In this document: positions 3,742-11,609 of the stretch, piece by piece | How positions within the stretch are numbered: position 1 is the first letter of the stretch | Layout: every line of letters starts with the position of its first letter | From: an uncultured delta proteobacterium | Lineage (GTDB): Bacteria > Desulfobacterota > Binatia > UBA9968 | Direction of reading: 5' to 3' | DNA: 14,109 nucleotides | Assembly: GCA_963804165.1 (NCBI GenBank) | Contig: CAWDPO010000021.1 | Coordinates: 1 to 14,109, forward strand | Position numbers and translations under genes: made by a program | Notes under the pieces: model-generated | Databases searched by the model: none | Seen by the model: the letters and a program-made list of their open reading frames with translations, nothing else | What the model was told of the DNA's origin: nothing

Positions 3742-3921
3742 GATTTGTTCCAACGGGCCGCAACTTATGTGGACAAAATCCTCAAAGGCGCCAAACCCGC
3801 CGATGTTCCCGTCGAGCAGCCGACGAAGTTAGAGTTCATCGTCAAACTCAGAGCGGCCAAGTAAATTGGCCTGACGATTCCGCCGAATGTGCTGGCGAGG
3901 GCGGACAGGGTGATCAAGTGA
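3742..3921 (+). pseudogene. Orphan 3' fragment of ABC transporter substrate-binding protein (ABC_sub_bind type)
   Basis: Translates [58 protein letters not shown]. Internal TAA at 3862-3864 and no upstream coding region. Homologous to 5311-5484. Confidence 0.9.
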
Positions 3922-3950
3922 GCAAAAGAAAACAAAGCAGCGATGCTAGG

Positions 3951-4016
3951 ATTGAGCTGTATTCTCCATCAACGCAATTTCGCGTCACATCATATTGAAG
4001 CGTCGTTCAGTTCAAT
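3951..4016 (+). repeat. Paired-site element copy 1 (subtype A)
   Basis: ATTGAGCTGTA-TTCTCC-ATCAACGCAAT / TTCGCGTCAC / ATCATATTGAA-GCGTCG-TTCAGTTCAAT. Flanks AGG...CCT extend the inverted repeat. Confidence 0.92.
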
Positions 4017-4162
4017 CCTGCGCTGAAAATAGCCTTTCCCGCACGGTGAATTGGGATTATCGAATTTAACCGGATATTGGACAGTTTCTGACGGCCAGCC
4101 GAGGGAGTAACGCTGTGTCCAAAGTTCAGTGGAAGGCGACCGAACTAAAAAGTTTACCAGGG

Positions 4163-4348
4163 TTACCGCTGATGCCGCCAAAAACGTGGCAGCAATAGCG
4201 GCCCACGTGCAGCTCGAAGAATAAAATTCGGCTTCGGCTTGTCCTTTTGCTGCTCAAGACTCTCGAGCCACTGGTCTAACGCCTTGCCTTGAATATCGAA
4301 AATCATCCGGCGTCGACGCCGTTTGCTAAACGACCGAAGGTTTATCAT
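4163..4348 (-). CDS. Possible small basic hypothetical protein
   Basis: 61 aa ORF from the ORF track, in otherwise unexplained space. No recognised motif. Confidence 0.2.
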   Translation of the reverse strand: MINLRSFSKRRRRRMIFDIQGKALDQWLESLEQQKDKPKPNFILRAARGPLLLPRFWRHQR

Positions 4349-4506
4349 CGGATCCTAATTTGACCACGATGTCGGGGATGGTGCAATGCATTTGTATGAA
4401 ATGAAGATGGAGAGACCGCTCGGTGAATCTGGTTCTCTTTCTGCCGTAAATAACACTTTTCTCAGCTTCCGTATCCGTGATAAAAGCCACAAGAACGAGT
4501 TATGCA

Positions 4507-5484
4507 ATGAAGAGAGCTGCGCCGCTATCCCATCCTGTTTGCAGTGATACTGTTTGCGGTTGCGGGATCGCCGAGGCGCAGCAGCCGAAAACATCTCGGA
4601 TAGGCGTGTTGGTTGCCGGCTCGGTTTCGACCCACAAGAGCCGCGACGATGCTTTCCGTCAGGGTCTGCGTGAACTTGGGTACACTGAGGGAAAGAACAT
4701 TGTCATTGAGTATCGATATGCAGAGGGCAATCTCAGTCGATACCCTGAGCTTGCTAATGAGATGGCCCGCCTGAAACCGGATGTTATCGTTGTAGCAAGC
4801 ACCAGGTTCACGGCTGCCGCCAAACAGGCCACCAGCACGATTCCGATCGTCGTTGGAGGAGCTGGCGATATTCTTGGCGAAGGGCTGGTTGCCAGTCTCG
4901 CCCGGCCGGGTGGAAACATTACGGGTTCAACCAACATTTCCCCGGACTTGAGCGGAAAACGACTGGAATTGCTAAAGGAAGTCGTTCCGAAAGCCTCGCG
5001 AATAGCCGTCCTTTGGACTGTCGGTCCGGACGCCAAGGAAGTAAAAGAGACAGAAATTGCTGCCCAGGCGTTTGGCCTGAAGGTTCAGTCACTACAAGTA
5101 CGAGACCCAAACGAGTTTCAGGCCGCCTATGCTGCGATGAGGAAAGAAAATGCCCATGCGCTCATCCTTATTCAGGGGAGCTTCACTTTGTTTCACCGAA
5201 AACAGCTCGTCGGGCTAGCGGCCGAGAATCGACTGCCCACGATGTGTGAATCGCCATCATGGACAGACGACGGTTGCCTCTTATCGTATGGGCCGGATTC
5301 GCTGTACTAATGGCGGCGCGCTGCGGTCTTCGTCGACAAGATTCTCAAGGGCACCAAGCCGGCTGATCTACCCGTTGAGCAGCCGATGAAGTTCGAGCTG
5401 GTGATCAATTTGAAAACGGCGAAGCAGATCGGCCTAACGATTCCGCCCAACGTACTGGCGAGAGCGGACAAAGTGATCAAGTAA
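4507..5484 (+). pseudogene. ABC transporter substrate-binding protein (ABC_sub_bind family), disrupted
   Basis: Family motifs AEAQQPK..RIGVL, FRQGLRELGYTEGKNIVIEYRYAEG, GLVASLARPGGNITG, GKRLELLKE. In-frame TAA at 5308-5310, after which the frame continues [14 protein letters not shown]...ADKVIK* to 5484. Signal peptide scrambled by +1/-1 indels at ~4531 and ~4566. Confidence 0.9.
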
Positions 5485-5491
5485 CGCCAGA

Positions 5492-5555
5492 ATTGAATTG
5501 AATTCTCCTACTAACAAATTCTGTGAGATTTGATCGTTGCGTCGTTCAGTTCAAT
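5492..5555 (+). repeat. Paired-site element copy 2 (subtype B)
   Basis: ATTGAATTGAA-TTCTCC-TACTAACAAAT / TCTGTGAG / ATTTGATCGTT-GCGTCG-TTCAGTTCAAT. Flanks CAGA...TCTG are complementary. Confidence 0.9.
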
Positions 5556-5728
5556 TCTGCCGGTGTTTGTTGGCTGTGGTCTGGAGGAAAATAGGCTGCG
5601 GATCGTTAGGGAGATAGGCCGCCGAGGTTGACAGCGTTTGCAGGCCACAAAGTTGTTGACAAGGGGGGGTATCTGAAGGATATTCCAAACCCCTATGTTT
5701 CCCAACCCACGCTGAAAGGAGCGTTTGA

Positions 5729-6202
5729 ATGAAATCACTCACCTTGATTGCACTTGTTGGTTACGCGATCCTTGCAGGATCTGCCTCCAACGCGGCCCAG
5801 GCCACACGAACGGAAAGTTGCAAGGTCACCACCGAAAAGGAGATCGCATCGTTGTTTGACCGGTGGAATCAGTCGTTGCAGACTGGCGATCCGCATAAGG
5901 TCGTTGCCAACTATGCGGAACGCTCCATTCTGTTGCCTACCGTTTCGAACAAACCACGCTTGACCCCGGCGGAAAGAGAAGATTACTTTCATCATTTCCT
6001 AGCGGATCGCCCCTCCGGAAAGATTGATCTGCGCTTCGTAGAGATCGGCTGCAACACCGCCGTTGACGCTGGCCTCTACACATTTACGTTCGCCAAGACA
6101 GGCGCAGTAGTCAGTGGCCGCTATAGCTATACGTATCGCTGGGATGGTTCGAAGTGGCTCATTACCAGCCATCACTCCTCCGCGATGCCAGAGAAGAAGT
6201 AG
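5729..6202 (+). CDS. SgcJ/EcaC family NTF2-like secreted protein (DUF4440 / CaMKII association-domain-like)
   Basis: AAAGGAG RBS at 5715-5721 and signal peptide. Motifs 'IASLFDRWN.SLQTGDP', 'LLPTVSN', 'DAGLYTF', 'RYSYTY', 'WLITSHHSSAMPE'. Confidence 0.9.
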   Translation: MKSLTLIALVGYAILAGSASNAAQATRTESCKVTTEKEIASLFDRWNQSLQTGDPHKVVANYAERSILLPTVSNKPRLTPAEREDYFHHFLADRPSGKIDLRFVEIGCNTAVDAGLYTFTFAKTGAVVSGRYSYTYRWDGSKWLITSHHSSAMPEKK

Positions 6203-6210
6203 TGACAGGG

Positions 6211-6238
6211 GTATAACCCTTCGTTGCAGCGGACTGCC
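6211..6238 (+). other. Left half of an integron attC-like site (truncated)
   Basis: GTATAAC-CCTTC-GTTGCAG-CGGACTGCC starting 9 nt after the stop of 5729..6202. Matches the R''-5 nt-L'' layout of attC; the right half is replaced by the substrate-binding gene tail. Confidence 0.55.
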
Positions 6239-6396
6239 GCTTATGTCGACAAGATTCTGAAGGGCGCCAAGCCCGCCGATCTGCCAGTCGAGCAACCGAC
6301 CAGTTTGAGTTTGTGATCAATCTGAAAACGGCAAAGCAGATCGGTCTGACAATTCCGCCCCGCGTGCTCGAGCGGGCGAATCAGGTGATCAAGTAA
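6236..6396 (+). pseudogene. Orphan 3' fragment of ABC transporter substrate-binding protein
   Basis: [22 protein letters not shown]-(1-nt deletion ~6301)[30 protein letters not shown]. Confidence 0.9.
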
Positions 6397-6423
6397 CCGA
6401 ACAAAGCGACGCGGCGAGCTAGG

Positions 6424-6485
6424 ATTGAATTGTATTCTCCAACGACTTAATCCTACAAGACGCGACTGTTGCGTTCCAGTTCAAT
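6424..6485 (+). repeat. Paired-site element copy 3 (subtype B, 2-bp deletion in right core)
   Basis: ATTGAATTGTA-TTCTCC-AACGACTTAAT / CCTACAAG / ACGCGACTGTT-GCGT-TCCAGTTCAAT. Flanks AGG...CCT. Confidence 0.88.
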
Positions 6486-6610
6486 CCTGCGGCGATAATA
6501 AGCTTGACTTTGATCGAACTGATAAAATAGCGTGGGCTAGCCAGAGTGTGTTGGGTTTTTCAGAATCATTCGACGAAGCCTAAAATCTCTTTACGTTGAA
6601 GAGGTGCGCG

Positions 6611-7525
6611 ATGCTTTCGCACAATTACTCCTACCAGGAATGTCTCGACAATTCCAAGAAGGTAGCGTGGAAAGAGGACGATGTTTTTGCAGGGAAGAAT
6701 TTCGATTTCTCGAAGCGTTTCCTGCCGAATCGATTGAGCGGTGTTGACAACATCACATGTCTGAACGACAACGAGAAGCGCCAGTTGAACCAGATCATGG
6801 GCAACGCCTACTGCCATATCTTCGCTTTCGTGGAGGAATTTATTATTCCCATGGTGACGCAAGCGGCGTTGAAGGACGCCTACGGGGAGAAAGTCAGGCT
6901 CCGTTCGCTGCTGCGGTTCGCAGAGGAGGAACTCAAGCATCAGGAGCTCTTTCGCCGCGCGGTGGTCTTGTTCGACCAAGGTTTCGGCGCGCAGTGCGGC
7001 TTAATCCCCGGTCGGGAGGATGTGGCGAAGGTCGTCCTGAGCAAGTCGGTGCTGGCCGCGCTGTACTTGACCACGGTAATCGAATGGTTTACCCAGCTCC
7101 ATTACGTCGAACACGTGCGTGATGCCTCGGGTCTCGATGAGCTGTTCCGCGATCTTTTGAGATTTCATTGGATGGAAGAGGCACAACACGCCAAACTTGA
7201 CACCATGCTAATCGACGAGATTGCGGAGACGGCGACCCTCGAGGAGCGAGAAACTGCTGTCGATGAGCTCCTCGAACTTGGGGGAGCTATCGACGGGTTA
7301 CTGTTGCAGCAGATCCAGCTGAACATAGAGACTCTGCAGAACGTGACCGGCCGCAAGTTCACGGAAGCCGAGAAAGAGGAGATTTCGACAAAGACCCATC
7401 GCGCCTGGAGATGGACTTTCCTGGTATCGGGATTGGAGCATCCCAACTTTGTCAAACTCGTCAACGAGTTGACGACAGAAGGACCGGAAAAGATCAAGGG
7501 CGCCGCGAAAGCGCTTTCCGCCTAG
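6611..7525 (+). CDS. Ferritin-like diiron protein (AurF-like diiron oxygenase superfamily)
   Basis: Paired E...ExxH motifs: FVEEFI / EEELKHQ and IEWFTQ / HWMEEAQH. ATG at 6611 is preceded by GAGGTG (the ORF track starts at TTG 6596). Confidence 0.82.
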   Translation: MLSHNYSYQECLDNSKKVAWKEDDVFAGKNFDFSKRFLPNRLSGVDNITCLNDNEKRQLNQIMGNAYCHIFAFVEEFIIPMVTQAALKDAYGEKVRLRSLLRFAEEELKHQELFRRAVVLFDQGFGAQCGLIPGREDVAKVVLSKSVLAALYLTTVIEWFTQLHYVEHVRDASGLDELFRDLLRFHWMEEAQHAKLDTMLIDEIAETATLEERETAVDELLELGGAIDGLLLQQIQLNIETLQNVTGRKFTEAEKEEISTKTHRAWRWTFLVSGLEHPNFVKLVNELTTEGPEKIKGAAKALSA

Positions 7526-7645
7526 CATGACCTGGCCACCAAAGCAAAAACTGGAAAAAAGAAACGCTGAGGCAAGACCTTCCGAGGGAAACAATTGATG
7601 TGCGGTCATCACGTTTCTCAATCACAGGCGATTGTGCTGCCGCTT

Positions 7646-7702
7646 CACCAACTCCTCGGGTTGAGACCGACGCTCGAAGCACCGCTCACCCGAACGTTAC
7701 GA
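7646..7702 (+). other. Degenerate integron attC-like site
   Basis: CACCAAC-TCCTC-GGGTTGAG...CTCACCC-GAAC-GTTACGA. TCGGGTTGAG pairs with CTCACCCGA leaving one extrahelical base, with AAC/GTT ends. Runs directly into element copy 4. Confidence 0.55.
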
Positions 7703-7767
7703 TTGAACTGCATTCTCCATCAACGCAATCTCGCGTCACATCGGACTGAAGCGGCGTTCAGTTGAAT
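7702..7767 (+). repeat. Paired-site element copy 4 (subtype A)
   Basis: ATTGAACTGCA-TTCTCC-ATCAACGCAAT / CTCGCGTCAC / ATCGGACTGAA-GCGGCG-TTCAGTTGAAT. Confidence 0.92.
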
Positions 7768-7913
7768 ATGCCCCGTGTCGCAGCGCACCGTCACGAGCGT
7801 AAAAGCGCCCTTCGCTTTCCCCCTCGTTTATCTGCGTCTTGAGCGGCTGGTGAATTAAAACCCCGCTCTTGGCTGGGAGTCAACTTTGAACAACATTGGA
7901 TAGTGATGCAGTT

Positions 7914-8105
7914 TCAAGTTTGATTCTGCATCGACGGGCACGGCGTATCCCCATAGGAACAAAACACGCAGCAATCACCCGCCTTGGCTTTCATCAGTTC
8001 GTGGCACGATTTGCACTCGTAGAAAAACTGGCAATAATCCACCGGCATCGCTACTCGCTCTACATGGCCACAGTTCGGGCATTTCAAGTTGCTTTCGGTT
8101 TGCAT
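7914..8105 (-). CDS. GDCCVxC domain-containing Cys-rich small protein
   Basis: 63 aa with CPNCGH, CQFFYECKSC, KAGDCCVFCSYG, CPS. The stop codon lies inside the terminal inverted repeat. Confidence 0.9.
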   Translation of the reverse strand: MQTESNLKCPNCGHVERVAMPVDYCQFFYECKSCHELMKAKAGDCCVFCSYGDTPCPSMQNQT

Positions 8106-8110
8106 GCTCT

Positions 8111-8182
8111 TTATCCGATTAAATTGACTATATCAGAGATTTCCCAAACCTTGTTAGTTACTCCCGCTTCCATTGCTGGATT
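8111..8182 (-). pseudogene. C-terminal remnant of IS1-family transposase
   Basis: Reads NPAMEAGVTNKVWEISDIVNLIG*, resembling the 'TPAMxAGxxxxxWxxxxIV' C-terminus of these transposases. It lies between the TIR and the passenger gene. Confidence 0.7.
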
Positions 8183-8220
8183 TTATTTTTCCTGAAATTG
8201 AAACTGCATCACTACCCAAC

Positions 8221-8248
8221 ATTGCGTTGAAGCGTCGTTCAGTTCTAT
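8221..8248 (+). repeat. Element copy 5 (right-hand site only)
   Basis: ATTGCGTTGAA-GCGTCG-TTCAGTTCTAT. Its first 4 nt overlap the IS target duplication. Confidence 0.88.
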
Positions 8249-8410
8249 CTCGGGCCAAATCTGGTTTTGTCACTCGACGAATGTTTCAAGACAGGACAAC
8301 ATTTGGACACGGAGCCGGATCGGATTGACAGCATCGAAGGCGGGTACACTAGAAGAGCAGTCGGGATGATTCGCAAGACTACCTCACCCGATGACACTTG
8401 TTTCTGCGTT

Positions 8411-8911
8411 TCACTTTTCGGATTTACCGAAATTTTTAATCCAGGATGCACCCGTCTCTTCGAGTGCGGAGCGAATCGCATTGCCATGGGCCGGGAAAGT
8501 GCTCGCGGCTTCAGCCCTCGTCGAGGCTTGAGCACGACTGCGGGATATTAAAACCAATTCCACATCCGTGGTCTTTTTTGAAGTGACGCTCACCGTCGCA
8601 ACTTCCGGCTCGAAGGCTACCCTGCTGACCTTTAGGATGTAACTGCCGGGCTCCAAGTCTTTTTTCACGTAGCGACCTTGGCGATCGGTCTGAGAAGTGC
8701 CAAGCAAAACCTTTTGTGAGGTCAAAAGCTCCACGTGCGCGCGCGGAACAGGTGCCCCACCTTGCTCGCGCACGACAGCTGCGATGTCGCCCGGAGCAGA
8801 CGGGAAAAAATTGTAGGCTCCGACGACGGAAGCAACTGAGCCGCCAAGAATCCCTATCCAGGTATTGATTCTTTTCAGCCATAAATCGTGTCGGGTTTCT
8901 GCAGCGCCCAT
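8411..8911 (-). CDS. Membrane-anchored carboxypeptidase-regulatory-like (prealbumin-like fold) domain protein
   Basis: ATG at 8911 with GAGG RBS and an N-terminal TM (WIGILGGSVASVVGAY). Motifs 'V.EQGGAPVPRAHVEL', 'TDRQGRY..KDLEPGSYILKVS..AF'. Confidence 0.8.
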   Translation of the reverse strand: MGAAETRHDLWLKRINTWIGILGGSVASVVGAYNFFPSAPGDIAAVVREQGGAPVPRAHVELLTSQKVLLGTSQTDRQGRYVKKDLEPGSYILKVSRVAFEPEVATVSVTSKKTTDVELVLISRSRAQASTRAEAASTFPAHGNAIRSALEETGASWIKNFGKSEK

Positions 8912-8964
8912 AAAGACCTCTATTGAAATTGACTGTCTCGATTGCCTTGGGACCCATGTCTTGC

Positions 8965-8979
8965 GCAAGCAACATGCCA
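8965..8979 (-). promoter_or_regulatory. Putative sigma-54 -24/-12 promoter
   Basis: Minus strand TGGCATG-TTGC-TTGC matches TGGCAC/TG-N4-TTGC, ~54 nt upstream of the ATG at 8911. Confidence 0.6.
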
Positions 8980-9409
8980 GAATACGAGGCGTTGTTTTTT
9001 TGGGAAACGGGGGGTGGTGATAAGAAGATTCGAGACAAAAAAGTCAGCTTGGTGGGCGAGGAAAGCAACAAGCACTAGGAATTTTTTCCGAGATTCAAGT
9101 AAAATTGTTTCGGATTCGCGAATAACTTCCCGGCCTAATGTGATTCCGCTGTAGTCGCATGGAGCTTGCTCGATTTTTCCACAACCCGGAGAACGTTGAG
9201 ATCTGATATCGAGGACACAGTCCGAGTCATCGTCGAGCGTGTTGGCTCTCGTGACATCGGCGAGTCCGCCCATCGAACTTCACGAAAGAGAATTCTAGAG
9301 CGGGTGGAACAAAACCACCTACCCTCCGTTCAGGGCATAAGCTTATGCAACGTTGTGATCAGAGGTTCCGGCGTTCTCTCAGGCAAATGCGAAACCGACT
9401 TTGCAGCCT

Positions 9410-9565
9410 CTACCGTTCCATCCTACTGCGGAGGCCCAACTCGGAAATCCTTGAGGAATTGTCGCCCAATTGCAACGCAGAGGTGTCCCAAGTGGGATTT
9501 TCCCGAAGCAACGAGATCAGAGACCAGAAAACAAAAACCAGCGCCAGGAGTGTGCTTGTATTCAT
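9410..9565 (-). CDS. Possible small membrane/secreted peptide or gene remnant
   Basis: AGGAG upstream of ATG 9565 and hydrophobic N-terminus MNTSTLLALVFVFWSLISLL. Only 51 aa. Confidence 0.3.
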   Translation of the reverse strand: MNTSTLLALVFVFWSLISLLRENPTWDTSALQLGDNSSRISELGLRSRMER

Positions 9566-9898
9566 ATATTCTCTCCTGTACCCGCGATTGTTCCACAGGA
9601 AAAATTTGATCCTCCGGAACTCGGAAGGGTCTCGGGTTTCAAAGTATCGTCTGATCCAAATAATCAGGTATGCATAACAGTGTCTGTCCAATATTAGACA
9701 GTTCCGAAATAATTATAATCAAGCCCGCGGGTGTGCCCGATCGTAATTGGTGATCGTTGATTTGGTGCCTTCGGCCGTGATGAATTACTTGAAACTTATT
9801 CGTGTGCGTTGTCGCAAGGAGGCTGTTTGGAAAGTCGGGATTCACAACGGCACAAGCGAAAGCCTTTTGAGCAAAGAAAGCGAAGCGGCGATGCTAGG

Positions 9899-9964
9899 AT
9901 TGAACTGAATTCTCCATCAACGCAATCTCGAGCGACATCGCATTGAAGCGTCGTTCAGGTCAAT
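9899..9964 (+). repeat. Paired-site element copy 6 (subtype A)
   Basis: ATTGAACTGAA-TTCTCC-ATCAACGCAAT / CTCGAGCGAC / ATCGCATTGAA-GCGTCG-TTCAGGTCAAT. Confidence 0.92.
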
Positions 9965-10128
9965 CTTAGGCTAAAAATCTGGTTCTTCCGCGCAACCCGT
10001 GCTGGAAATGCGCACCGATAGCAGCTGCTCGCAGCAACGTGACGCCAGAATTGCAATGTTGCGCTCCTGTTTCAGCGGTGACACGCTTATCGTTGAAGGC
10101 ACCTAATTGATTAGGAGGGCATGACAGC

Positions 10129-10362
10129 ATGAACTCCCAAACTACAGGATTGCTAGTGTCGAGCGTGGTGTTCGCTTCGCTGGCCATTGCGCAGCTGGCG
10201 CGGCTTGTAATACGGCCAGAAGTGCTTGTAGGTGGTTATCCGATGCCATTGTGGCCAAGCGTTTTGGCTGTTATCGTTTTCGGCGGTCTGAGTCTTTGGT
10301 TGTGGAGACTTGCTCGCACGCCTACCAGCGAAAACAGTGAGGCGAGGCGCATAAGCCGCTAA
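10129..10362 (+). CDS. Small two-helix membrane hypothetical protein
   Basis: 77 aa with AGGAGG upstream and two hydrophobic segments joined by 'PEVLVGGYPMPLWPS'. Confidence 0.75.
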   Translation: MNSQTTGLLVSSVVFASLAIAQLARLVIRPEVLVGGYPMPLWPSVLAVIVFGGLSLWLWRLARTPTSENSEARRISR

Positions 10363-10424
10363 CCATTGGATCTAACTCGGCGGGGAACTAAGAAAACCCG
10401 CTGTTGGTTTTGGATTAGGCTAGC

Positions 10425-10452
10425 ATCGCGTTGAAGCGTCGTTAAGTTCAAT
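10425..10452 (+). repeat. Element copy 7 (right-hand site only)
   Basis: ATCGCGTTGAA-GCGTCG-TTAAGTTCAAT. Confidence 0.88.
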
Positions 10453-10560
10453 CTCACGTCGATTACAGAATTTGACTGTAGGTTTGAGGACTATCCACGA
10501 ACGCGTTATGCGAGTAAAAACGCTTTCAGGCCATTTGCGTCTTTAGGGATTCTGTAATGT

Positions 10561-11208
10561 TCACTGTTCGCTAACCTCAACGTCGTCGAGAGCCGTAAGA
10601 ATACCGAGCTCCAAGGCCGTGATTGGAAGCGTCGGACAGCCCGAGGGCCGTTTGGCCTCTGTGCCTTCACAATTTCGCGTCACCCGCTGGTAGTAACCGA
10701 CGAATCCGCGCTCCCCTTTGCTCAGGAACAGTTGAATCATCTGGTCGTTTAACCGTCCATTGGTCATCTCGCTGTAGAAGGCAGATAGCTCGCCGAAGTG
10801 TCCGGTTAAAGGTCTGCCGATCCGGTACGAGTAATTGCCGTGAAACGCAACGTAGCTACGGTCATTGGCCAACCGGCGATCCGCTCCACCAAGGAACGCA
10901 TTGGCGCAGGCTGAGTTACAGTACCCCAAGGCAACGGTCGACAGCCCTCGGCGTCGAATCTCGTGAGCAAGGGCTAACCCGATCAAATGTACCCCGCCCG
11001 GGCTGTTGGTGAAGACGACAGTTCGTATGGCTGGGGTTAGGTGCGAAAGGAATTTGTCGTAATCCAACTCGTTAATGAAACCGCTGAGGATGAGCTGAGA
11101 GCCGCTGACGCTCATCTCCATTGCTGAAGTGGGGACGGCTCCCAGCAGAAGCAGCGAGACGTACAGCCAAACGGGTAACTGTTTAATTAACTTCATCGGT
11201 TCCATCAA
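10561..11208 (-). CDS. Secreted ClpP/crotonase-like fold protein (COG3904-like)
   Basis: Signal peptide (likely start 11205 or 11196). Motifs 'LILSGFI', 'NSPGG', 'CNSACANAFLGGADR', 'VAFHG'. Confidence 0.78.
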   Translation of the reverse strand: MMEPMKLIKQLPVWLYVSLLLLGAVPTSAMEMSVSGSQLILSGFINELDYDKFLSHLTPAIRTVVFTNSPGGVHLIGLALAHEIRRRGLSTVALGYCNSACANAFLGGADRRLANDRSYVAFHGNYSYRIGRPLTGHFGELSAFYSEMTNGRLNDQMIQLFLSKGERGFVGYYQRVTRNCEGTEAKRPSGCPTLPITALELGILTALDDVEVSEQ

Positions 11209-11304
11209 TTTCAGTTGATTCGACGTTTAGCGCCTCGGCTCGGTTCGTTGCAAGCGGCTCTCGGCTCGCTTTCAACTGCTCGATTGCGTGAAATGACACT
11301 ATCT

Positions 11305-11399
11305 AACTAACAAAGCGGTGGAGGGGAACGCAGCAGTCCTGCCGCTGGATTCCCTTATCGCTTCGGATCCTCAGCGCTCCCTCAACGCCAACGCTAAGG
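11305..11399 (+). other. Degenerate integron attC-like site
   Basis: AACTAAC-AAAGC-GGTGGAG...CTCAAC-GCCAAC-GCTAAGG gives R''-5-L''...L'-6-R' spacing as in attC, with R' GTT changed to GCT. Ends 5 nt before element copy 8. Confidence 0.55.
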
Positions 11400-11404
11400 C
11401 TGTA

Positions 11405-11468
11405 ATTGAACTGATTTCTCCTACGACTAAATCCTATGAGATTTGACTGAAGCGTCGTTCAGTTCAAT
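11405..11468 (+). repeat. Paired-site element copy 8 (subtype B)
   Basis: ATTGAACTGAT-TTCTCC-TACGACTAAAT / CCTATGAG / ATTTGACTGAA-GCGTCG-TTCAGTTCAAT. Confidence 0.92.
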
Positions 11469-11609
11469 CTCAGGCTGAATCCCGTCTTGTGGCTCGAAGA
11501 ATACCTGTCGCTTTCAGTCGTAAATCTCAGTTTCCCTCTAATGCCGCCCGCGTGATACATAGCAATTGGTGTGGCTTCATGTGACGTTCTTATCCTGGAT
11601 CAGAAACGT

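Follow-up and report, generated by a model that had tools for sequence, protein, structure and literature searches.

What are the repeats that punctuate a short contig of an uncultured 'Candidatus Binatia'-type soil bacterium, and what might they do? The window analysed here is that entire contig (C21, 14,109 nt), part of a metagenome-assembled genome (MAG) of 7.5 Mb in 46 contigs, 81% complete with 5% contamination and called the home genome below; C-numbers denote its contigs, and G-numbers denote other genomes. Between positions 3950 and 11469, the window contains six composite units (64-68 nt each) and two lone right sites. An earlier note on this DNA had recognised two different 6-bp cores in the repeats, and had offered two explanations: each cargo lies between mutually incompatible sites, which permit like-with-like excision and double-crossover swap but not inversion; or the repeat folds into a bubbled hairpin that is itself the substrate. 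The first explanation fits the evidence best, although one junction between unlike cores speaks against it. With a probability of about 0.5, the repeats are not one hairpin element but sites at which a chromosomal system of gene cassettes recombines: duplex, dif/lox-like targets of a tyrosine recombinase that come in two heterospecific versions. All evidence is in silico, mostly from MAGs. On that evidence, the arrays are rows of cassettes, most of them with a single gene, and work like dif modules or integrons, but the sites match neither.

Each composite unit reads, in order: outer arm GATTGAA(C/T)TGAA; left core TTCTCC; a variable stretch of 29-34 nt; right core GCGTCG; and outer arm' TTCAGTTCAATC. 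The cores are as the earlier note described them (coordinates in Table 1): TTCTCC in six of six left copies and GCGTCG in six of eight right copies, the two deviants being GCGGCG and GCGT, the latter shorter by 2 nt. The variable stretch has order too: it opens with 12 nt (B') and closes with 12 nt (B) that are degenerate versions of outer arm' and the outer arm, respectively, with consensus sequences of roughly WTCRAYNNAATC and GATTNNRYTGAW. Every site is a 12-6-12 element, composed of the conserved arm GATTGAACTGAA, a 6-nt core and a weaker inverted arm, and each half of a unit is a complete site: A-TTCTCC-B' on the left and B-GCGTCG-A' on the right. The two versions differ in orientation and in overlap. 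Both in the home genome and in the long-contig congener G018, arm GATTGAACTGAA precedes TTCTCC on one strand and CGACGC (that is, GCGTCG) on the other.

How strictly are the cores tied to the arm? The outer arm has 780 matches in the home genome at no more than two mismatches, noise included, and the hexamer that follows is TTCTCC in 53 cases and CGACGC in 51. The third hexamer, GCGTCG (11 times), represents near-palindromic right sites read from the other arm, and all remaining hexamers occur four times at most. The same rule holds in the G018 arrays. Moreover, the 18-nt right end GCGTCGTTCAGTTCAATC (up to three mismatches) has 75 matches in the home genome, versus five for its reversed control. 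Conservation was measured in 59 distinct composite units from the window, other home contigs, G018 and public records, chosen with at most one core and three arm mismatches. Identity to the consensus reaches 98% in either core and 91-96% in the outer arms, but falls to 61-63% in the inner arms and 47% in the loop. Because this set was selected on the very features described, the hexamer count is the less biased figure. The earlier note had pitted the cores against the arms; the cores stand far above the inner arms, and the outer arms are almost as conserved as the cores. By their inner stretch the units form two subfamilies, type I (about 32 nt, 31 units) and type II (30 nt, 28 units).

Strict half-sites in the home genome number 53 left and 51 right, with 24 of each in composite pairs. 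Some of the strictly unpaired half-sites have a partner with one core mismatch. The second arm exceeds the 99th percentile of background in 27 of 29 strictly unpaired left sites and in 23 of 27 right sites.

The proposed mechanism takes each half-site as a recombination site in its own right, made up of a strongly conserved 12-bp arm (A), an overlap of 6 bp, and an inverted arm (B) whose conservation is weak. Exchange between two left sites, or between two right sites, would excise, insert or swap a cassette together with a small neighbouring module. Exchange between a left and a right site, and with it inversion of the cassette, would be blocked by the non-identical overlaps. In this layout the repeats share the grammar of dif modules in Acinetobacter, in which sites are asymmetric with a 6-bp spacer, module types alternate, and recombination is confined to like spacers. 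Its backing lies in the complete 12-6-12 halves, the common lone sites with a second arm, the strand-uniform arrays, and the breakpoints at cores. One arm is conserved and one variable, as set out above, and the pairing between halves is mostly due to the arm consensus.

The arrays follow this grammar. Sites cluster on about a dozen contigs of the home genome, and they are strand-uniform within arrays (15/15 sites on C5, 19/19 on C12, and 13/13 in the window), so that all left sites are mutual direct repeats, and likewise all right sites. Left and right alternate in 16 of 18 transitions on C12, 13 of 14 on C5, and 9 of 12 in the window. Segments flanked by A arms are the cassettes. Those flanked by B arms, which correspond to 'C modules', are usually about 30 nt long, although some are long and carry genes (C8:28323-29419 and C12:59206-61893). 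Since most of them have shrunk to this size, two sites look back-to-back and can fold. ('Fusion' modules, of which 9966-10423 in the window is an example, are bounded by two like sites.)

Do the cassettes move, and where do they break? The earlier note had proposed mapping crossover points in chimeric copies, and these points fall directly after TTCTCC, or within GCGTCG plus the arm. Window positions 6241-7718 match C23:248455-246976 at 98.4% identity, ending exactly after the TTCTCC of unit 4; contig X17, from a soil metatranscriptome, covers 6453-7719 and then continues with different sequence. Positions 9951-11469 match C23:256832-255309 at 99.3% identity. The cassette at C12:70838-71776 recurs on C20 and at C12:58397 with different neighbours; the left break lies at or before GCGTCG, and the right breaks lie after outer arm' or right after the left core. 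A B-flanked module of 1.05 kb is common to C8 and C5, with right neighbours that diverge inside outer arm'. Alternation and breakpoints at cores are as in dif modules, with one junction between unlike cores. Insertion by a transposon with target duplication was rejected, as the cassette flanks differ (GCGTCG versus TTCTCC). Longer stretches are also near-identical between contigs: 9912-14109 matches C22:1-4207, and 2802-3563 matches C23:45219-44460, at 97-99% identity. They are collapsed strain variants or recent duplications, and explain why the window contig is short.

Which enzyme might act on these sites? One candidate is the integron integrase, IntI (profile TIGR02249, cut-off 265 bits). 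None was found in the home genome, where the best match scores 105 bits (the genome being 81% complete). IntI exceeds the cut-off in 9 of 31 genomes of the genus (8/30 without G005, an unpublished genome for which counts are given both ways), with fragments in six more. Among 14 IntI loci from 11 congeners (3.7-20 kb each), none carries a unit half-site (0/14; 0/12 without G005), whereas strict canonical attC sites (GCCTAAC...GTTAGGC, for example) are present at 8/14 (8/12). The number of units does not vary with the presence of IntI, and at least 11 genus genomes have units without IntI. A linked IntI was accordingly rejected as the enzyme: in the home genome, five relatives, 31 genus genomes and 14 loci, no unit adjoins an IntI gene. 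(The G018 IntI gene, at locus L012, G018:C6, 6039-7975, stands head to head with an open reading frame (ORF) that resembles lexA by eye, no search having been made; no cassette array was detected within about 13 kb of it.)

The host XerCD recombinase is a second candidate. A putative host dif, TGATAA-GAWATA-TTATGTAAACT, occurs in 22 of the 31 genus genomes (21/30 without G005) and is single-copy in 20, the reversed control giving none. Outer arm' TTCAGTTCAAT shares only 6 of 11 positions with the XerD-side arm of this putative dif, and mimicry of the host dif by the units was rejected on that ground. An Xer-like gene in a G018 module between TTCTCC and CCGTCG is frameshifted, and its next best relative in the genus has 44% identity; it was set aside as cargo.

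A third candidate, the most suggestive of the three, travels on IS91-family elements. These encode an IS91 (Y2) transposase and, upstream of it, a recombinase of 278-299 aa with an IntI-type amino-terminal domain (PF13495) and no IntI insert. This protein scores 156-164 bits on TIGR02249, below the cut-off, and its best model is XerA/integron-integrase. The home genome holds at least ten copies or fragments of the element, and one subfamily sits exactly between outer arm and core: twice on C23, and on C18, C30 and a contig of G045 (Table 1). Each junction runs from the outer arm directly into TGTACA, TGTATA or CGGATA and a hairpin, then the transposase and recombinase genes, and from GGTTTAGTCCAA directly into TTCTCC (CGACGC in G045). 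The core is not duplicated, and on C18 it is one base short (GACGC). The junctions are suggestive of the remnant expected from one-strand exchange between an element site and the arm-core boundary; targeting by the HUH transposase is the alternative. As the enzyme of the whole system, this recombinase was kept as a candidate only, since it is missing from several unit-rich genomes, namely G018 (31 sites), G024, G017, G003, G012 and G004. One end of the element has a perfect hairpin with a stem of roughly 18 bp (GGTTTTAACCTGAATGCG...), and an inverted arm pair, TTGGACTAAA and TTTAGTCCAA, flanks the gene pair. A long inverted repeat (TACACTGACCAGTGTAT... / ...ATACACTGGTCAGT...) directly follows a true IntI gene at L014 (G012:C72, 7298-7416), and the same repeat occurs on home contig C5 at about 5100-5230, beside the recombinase end of a second IS91-type subfamily.

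Several findings weigh against duplex exchange between like sites. The module with the 77-aa ORF comes after GCGTCG in the window, whereas on C23 it comes directly after arm-TTCTCC, at a junction that lacks 38 nt (inner arms, loop and right core); like-with-like duplex exchange cannot yield this. The IS91-type elements lie exactly at the arm-core boundary with the core not duplicated, which points to exchange of a single strand. Covariation between the inner arms remains (6.42 pairs of 12 versus 5.94 shuffled in the 59 units, p=0.0004; 7.29 versus 6.83 in type II, p=0.009), and most mismatches between the inner arms of type I units read C.A on the top strand, equivalent to G.T on the bottom. 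In addition, the near-identical contigs may be strain variants within the MAG, and so population variants rather than paralogues, with break positions unaffected; the G018 arrays are bordered by ordinary genes, with no recombinase tied to them; and the arms are unlike the putative host dif, so that use of host XerCD, the mechanism of dif modules, is doubtful. Several of these points bear on the explanation ranked second, a possible but distinctly less probable one, in which the substrate is a composite unit folded as a single strand, on the pattern of attC or of the hairpin formed by CTXphi attP. Recombinase would bind the duplexes of outer stem (A/A') and inner stem (B'/B), and the non-complementary cores would be an unpaired central bubble. 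One strand would be cut at the arm-core boundary, replication would resolve the product, and lone sites would be the duplex, attI-like partners; the enzyme would be an IntI-like recombinase without the IntI insert, as on the IS91-type elements, or IntI acting in trans. The geometry is that of attC, whose motifs are GTTRRRY (R') and RYYYAAC (R''): the right end GTTCAGT fits six of the seven GTTRRRY positions, and the mapped boundary falls between G and TT. This boundary, the unlike-core junction and the IS91-type insertions are three facts in favour of one-strand exchange at the arm-core boundary; the folded strand as substrate is weakened by the remaining evidence. The fold proposed in the earlier note is possible, with z of -2.2 or below relative to shuffles for five of six top strands and three of six bottom strands. 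The bottom strand of unit 6 forms outer stem, bubble and a 10-bp inner stem, whereas unit 4 folds no better than shuffles (z -0.74 and +0.64). The covariation signature expected of such a hairpin is weak. Paired cells in the 59-unit alignment amount to 74.6% versus 72.5% shuffled, and the covariation score is 0.143 versus 0.116, with 0/500 shuffles exceeding either, in a test that ignores relatedness, which alone can produce such scores. The excess of bottom-strand G.T in type I (8.58 versus 6.03 pairs of 12) comes from three positions of shared consensus, not from many independent events. Inner arms of type I pair with their own partners hardly better than shuffled (5.65 versus 5.53, p=0.23), and the covariation is small and largely an effect of the two subfamilies. 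Among 29 distinct units of the home genome, B' pairs with its own B at 6.03 of 12 positions and with the B of other units at 5.80 (p=0.17; p=0.09 with G.T), and own and chimeric folding energies are -3.51 and -3.09 kcal/mol (p=0.07). The outer stem lacks covariation (p=0.27). The co-varying flanks of the earlier note (AGG/CCT against CAGA/TCTG) are present in copies 1-3 and find no support at scale (4-nt flanks 2.05 versus 1.90, p=0.10), and extended terminal inverted repeats or a long hairpin were rejected (20-nt flank identity 6.4/20, versus 5.9 for random pairs). Other features also sit poorly with a folded substrate: the inner arms, in contrast to those of attC, hold to a sequence consensus; there are many complete lone sites; the cores are 98% conserved, which is not required of an unpaired spacer; the left end has no AAC triplet; and the IS91-type recombinase occurs in just 8 of 31 genus genomes. 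Since all four arms are versions of one sequence, their complementarity largely follows from that.

Two further explanations draw on known repeats. The units could be divergent true attC sites, and the arrays clusters of attC sites lacking integrases (CALINs) serviced by the genus's own IntI. IntI is indeed common in the genus, and the cargo is integron-like in being small, diverse and often of unknown kind. Moreover, a GTTRRRY-like box precedes the arm by 3-5 nt at 16 of 84 strict left sites, five of them with a full attC-like hairpin of about 100 nt, which indicates that integron cassettes have entered the arrays and mix with them. (The window has a degenerate attC-like box, GCTAAGG, before an outer arm at about 11305-11400, its hairpin judged by eye; elsewhere the sequence is ..GCTGAGC..CGTTAGCGC.) This identity is nonetheless very improbable for the units themselves, given the separation of IntI loci and units described above. 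In the left box, A(C/T)TGAAT, there is no AAC and the final T stands opposite G, and the inner arms keep a consensus with little pairing beyond shuffled expectation. It is also improbable that the repeats belong with repetitive extragenic palindromic (REP) sequences, bacterial interspersed mosaic elements (BIMEs) and REP doublets forming hairpins (REPINs), or are some other structural or regulatory DNA or RNA repeat, spread by an HUH transposase or by duplication and decay. Each half is an imperfect palindrome, often after a (C/G)TAG-like tetranucleotide; the halves are inverted as in BIMEs; many units follow ABC_sub_bind stop codons; and Y1_Tnp (PF01797) genes occur in five of five genomes tested, the home genome having 15 matches, one of them inside the C12 array. 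Such presence in every genome tested makes REP-associated (RAYT/Y1) transposases uninformative, and no linkage to units was seen. Unlike REP sequences, the copies are clustered in strand-uniform arrays rather than dispersed, identical cassettes occur in differing contexts with breaks at cores, and two invariant 6-nt cores separate the inverted arms. A general 3' signal of ABC_sub_bind genes was rejected as well: a left site follows only 17 of 806 loose 3'-end matches, and the large tandem ABC_sub_bind arrays on C6, C16 and C38 have no units. The earlier note's caveat of a transcribed structured RNA found no support, with no Rfam match at E <= 1 across the whole window and no unit called as an intrinsic terminator.

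Overall, duplex exchange between like sites ranks ahead of the folded strand, and can be set beside the known systems. Engineered cassette exchange places cargo between heterospecific lox or FRT spacers with shared arms, which limits exchange to like sites and suppresses intramolecular inversion and deletion; here the 12-6-12 sites are natural, and form arrays instead of a single landing pad. In CTXphi attP, single-strand folding of two dif-like sites in inverted orientation gives arm, mismatched 6-nt centre and arm. The same fold, which would give one-strand exchange without reversal, is possible for the units by single-strand folding, with the weak covariation noted. Here, however, there is no context of a phage or an integrative mobile element exploiting Xer (IMEX); dozens of copies bound cellular genes; the halves are 5-10 nt apart; and each half is a good duplex site. 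With integron attC and attI sites the units share small, promoter-poor cassettes, two pairs of inverted boxes, non-complementary spacers of 5-6 nt, the boundary between G and TT, a possible one-strand exchange, and mobile elements that target the sites. They differ in the lack of IntI linkage, the 12-bp arms, the inner-box consensus, the weak covariation, the left box without AAC, the conserved spacers, and the many lone half-sites. Like REP, BIME and REPIN elements, the units pair imperfect palindromes in inverted orientation and often follow directly on stop codons; they differ in being clustered and strand-uniform, in bounding mobile cassettes around two fixed 6-nt centres, and in having no RAYT linkage found.

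To our knowledge, integrons and the more recent dif modules are the only well-described natural shufflers of single-gene cassettes, known mainly from Proteobacteria. The closest resemblance is to the dif modules of Acinetobacter. As set out in an excerpt of PMC13141974, a 6-bp spacer lies between distinct XerC and XerD arms in pdif sites, rearrangement takes place between identical or near-identical spacers, module pairs are excised, single modules are replaced through two crossovers, and the like-spacer logic is shown experimentally; insertion sequences that target pdif sites are described in an excerpt of PMC10132070. The repeats share the asymmetry of the sites, in which a 6-bp spacer separates a conserved arm from a variable one, as well as the alternating orientation and two kinds of module (C and D there; A-flanked cassettes and B-flanked modules here). 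They differ in being chromosomal, on contigs of Binatia-type MAGs of up to 2 Mb (0.3-2 Mb in G018) rather than on Rep_3/OrfX plasmids of Acinetobacter; in having only two spacers, each tied to one orientation; in the B-flanked modules of mostly about 30 nt; and in arms unlike the putative host dif, with no tie of the arrays to XerCD. In the library of papers searched, arm or core strings were found only as unrelated primers and no paper paired Binatia with integrons; a search on integron-like or dif-like cassettes listed only papers on integrons and tyrosine recombinases, with no published description of these arrays found. A bolder proposal is tentative: that the arrays are a third natural cassette platform beside integrons and dif modules, chromosomal, belonging to uncultured soil bacteria, and served by a dedicated recombinase. 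Cassettes bounded by the two heterospecific site versions would be excised, inserted and exchanged like with like, and not inverted; the IntI-like enzyme without the IntI insert on IS91-family elements is one candidate recombinase.

How far do the sites and cassettes extend? At two mismatches or fewer, the right-end motif occurs in 21 of 24 sampled congeners; at one or fewer, it occurs in 6 of 201 genomes sampled across the class, including the home genome. Four of the other five are among 13 genomes of the window's family, and the fifth is a weak match outside it. Exact matches also occur in public records titled Binatia, 'delta proteobacterium', Pyrinomonadaceae, Blastocatellia, Verrucomicrobiia and more. 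Spread across phyla was not accepted from such titles, which are unreliable: the 'Verrucomicrobiia' record L072 (G044) belongs to the window's genus and gives the same matches as member G024. Contigs from the soil metagenomes of four studies carry individual window cassettes at 92-100% identity, and contig pieces tend to end at units. Stretches of the window left uncovered by this material, and joints between units with one short side, could equally reflect the likeness of units to each other. These near-identical occurrences suggest that the cassette pool is widely shared.

In other arrays of the home genome, cargo ORFs most often measure about 313-341 aa, which is the length of ABC_sub_bind genes; many left sites lie directly 3' of an ABC-type stop codon. 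The G018 arrays carry MgtC, TENA/THI-4, methyltransferases, a response regulator and a serpin. Window cargo ORFs lie on either strand, and several are unassigned (Table 1).

Table 1. Junctions, cassettes and modules of the window, with the IS91-type insertions at arm-core boundaries. Right cores are GCGTCG unless stated.
Feature	Position	Strand	Left core (TTCTCC)	Right core	Details
ABC_sub_bind 3' fragment	3744..3922	+			end of an earlier cassette, left as a remnant immediately upstream of junction 1
Junction 1, composite unit	3950..4017	+	3962-3967	4000-4005	outer arm 3950-3961; inner arms and loop 3968-3999; outer arm' 4006-4017
Cassette, junctions 1-2	4018..5490	+			ABC_sub_bind (PF04392) gene 4477-5483; in-frame TAA 5308-5310
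Junction 2, composite unit	5491..5556	+	5503-5508	5539-5544	type II inner module
Cassette, junctions 2-3	5557..6422	+			CaMKII_AD/DUF4440 (SnoaL-like) ORF, 157 aa, 5729-6202; ABC_sub_bind 3' fragment 6220-6397
Junction 3, composite unit	6423..6486	+	6435-6440	6471-6474 (GCGT)	decayed right site, GCGT then TCCAGTTCAATC; same decayed unit at C23:248255
Cassette, junctions 3-4	6487..7700	+			309-aa ORF 6596-7525, weak AurF-like match below Pfam cut-off; 98-99% identical C23 copy
Junction 4, composite unit	7701..7768	+	7713-7718	7751-7756 (GCGGCG)	outer arm' TTCAGTTGAATA
Module, junctions 4-5	7769..8219				63-aa ORF 7914-8105 (-) between 30-nt inverted repeats 7891-7920 / 8195-8224
Junction 5, lone right site	8220..8249	+		8232-8237	arm CATTGCGTTGAA; arm' TTCAGTTCTATC
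Cassette, junctions 5-6	8250..9897				CarboxypepD_reg-domain ORF 8411-8968 (-); unassigned ORFs
Junction 6, composite unit	9898..9965	+	9910-9915	9948-9953	type I inner module
Module between two right sites (junctions 6, 7)	9966..10423	+			77-aa ORF 10129-10362; 100% identical C22 and C23 copies
Junction 7, lone right site	10424..10453	+		10436-10441	arm CATCGCGTTGAA; arm' TTAAGTTCAATC
Cassette, junctions 7-8	10454..11403				215-aa ORF 10561-11208 (-), no Pfam match; 99-99.8% identical C22 and C23 copies
Junction 8, composite unit	11404..11469	+	11416-11421	11452-11457	type II
IS91-type insertion	C23:251628-254240				
IS91-type insertion	C23:259524-262121				
IS91-type insertion	C18:37246-39713				
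IS91-type insertion	C30:154974-157055				
IS91-type insertion	L120 (G045:C54) 8978-11525				

Some features of the window and its genome deserve separate mention. The frame of the ABC_sub_bind gene at 4477-5483 runs past its TAA to a conserved carboxyl terminus, so the gene is a pseudogene or a sequencing or strain variant. ABC_sub_bind 3' ends are repeated just upstream of units 1-3 (the second at 5307-5485), and two of the three lack the 5' part. The fragment between junctions 2 and 3 comes after the SnoaL-like gene, to which it is unrelated, as though illegitimate recombination had exchanged the front of an ABC cassette. The inverted repeats around the 63-aa ORF are 87% complementary. The one on the right looks like an outer arm that has diverged and has a different centre, CACTACC; the module may be invertible or decayed.

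Cassette 5' leaders, the first 20-30 nt after outer arm' of many units (for example window 4018-4040, 9966-9990 and 11470-11495; loci L017-L096), belong to a small number of conserved families: CTACGTCGAAATTAGCCTTTTT, TCAGGCTAAATCTGGTCTTCCC and CTACGGGTCCGCGAGCACTTCT. One module has copies on C8 and C5 in which about 16 nt in the middle of the leader look inverted relative to each other (11/15 identical after reverse complementation). A repeat of about 205 nt at the start of a cassette (C12:48668-48873) recurs at 16 further places, with 94-98.5% identity, on 12 contigs (two on C12), and is probably a small mobile element. ABC_sub_bind genes in the home genome number well over a hundred. Contigs C6, C16, C37 and C38 hold very large tandem arrays of such paralogues, with spacers of about 50 nt rich in short repeats and no units.

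What would it mean if like-with-like exchange at these sites is borne out? The cassette exchange between twin heterospecific sites that engineers devised would have evolved naturally. The arrays would be a new source of mobile soil genes, mostly for ABC-type solute-binding proteins and small unknown proteins, and they would offer a clean test bed for how identity of the overlap sequence steers the choice of partner. Moreover, canonical attC cassettes are embedded in the arrays, and the two cassette systems may feed each other.

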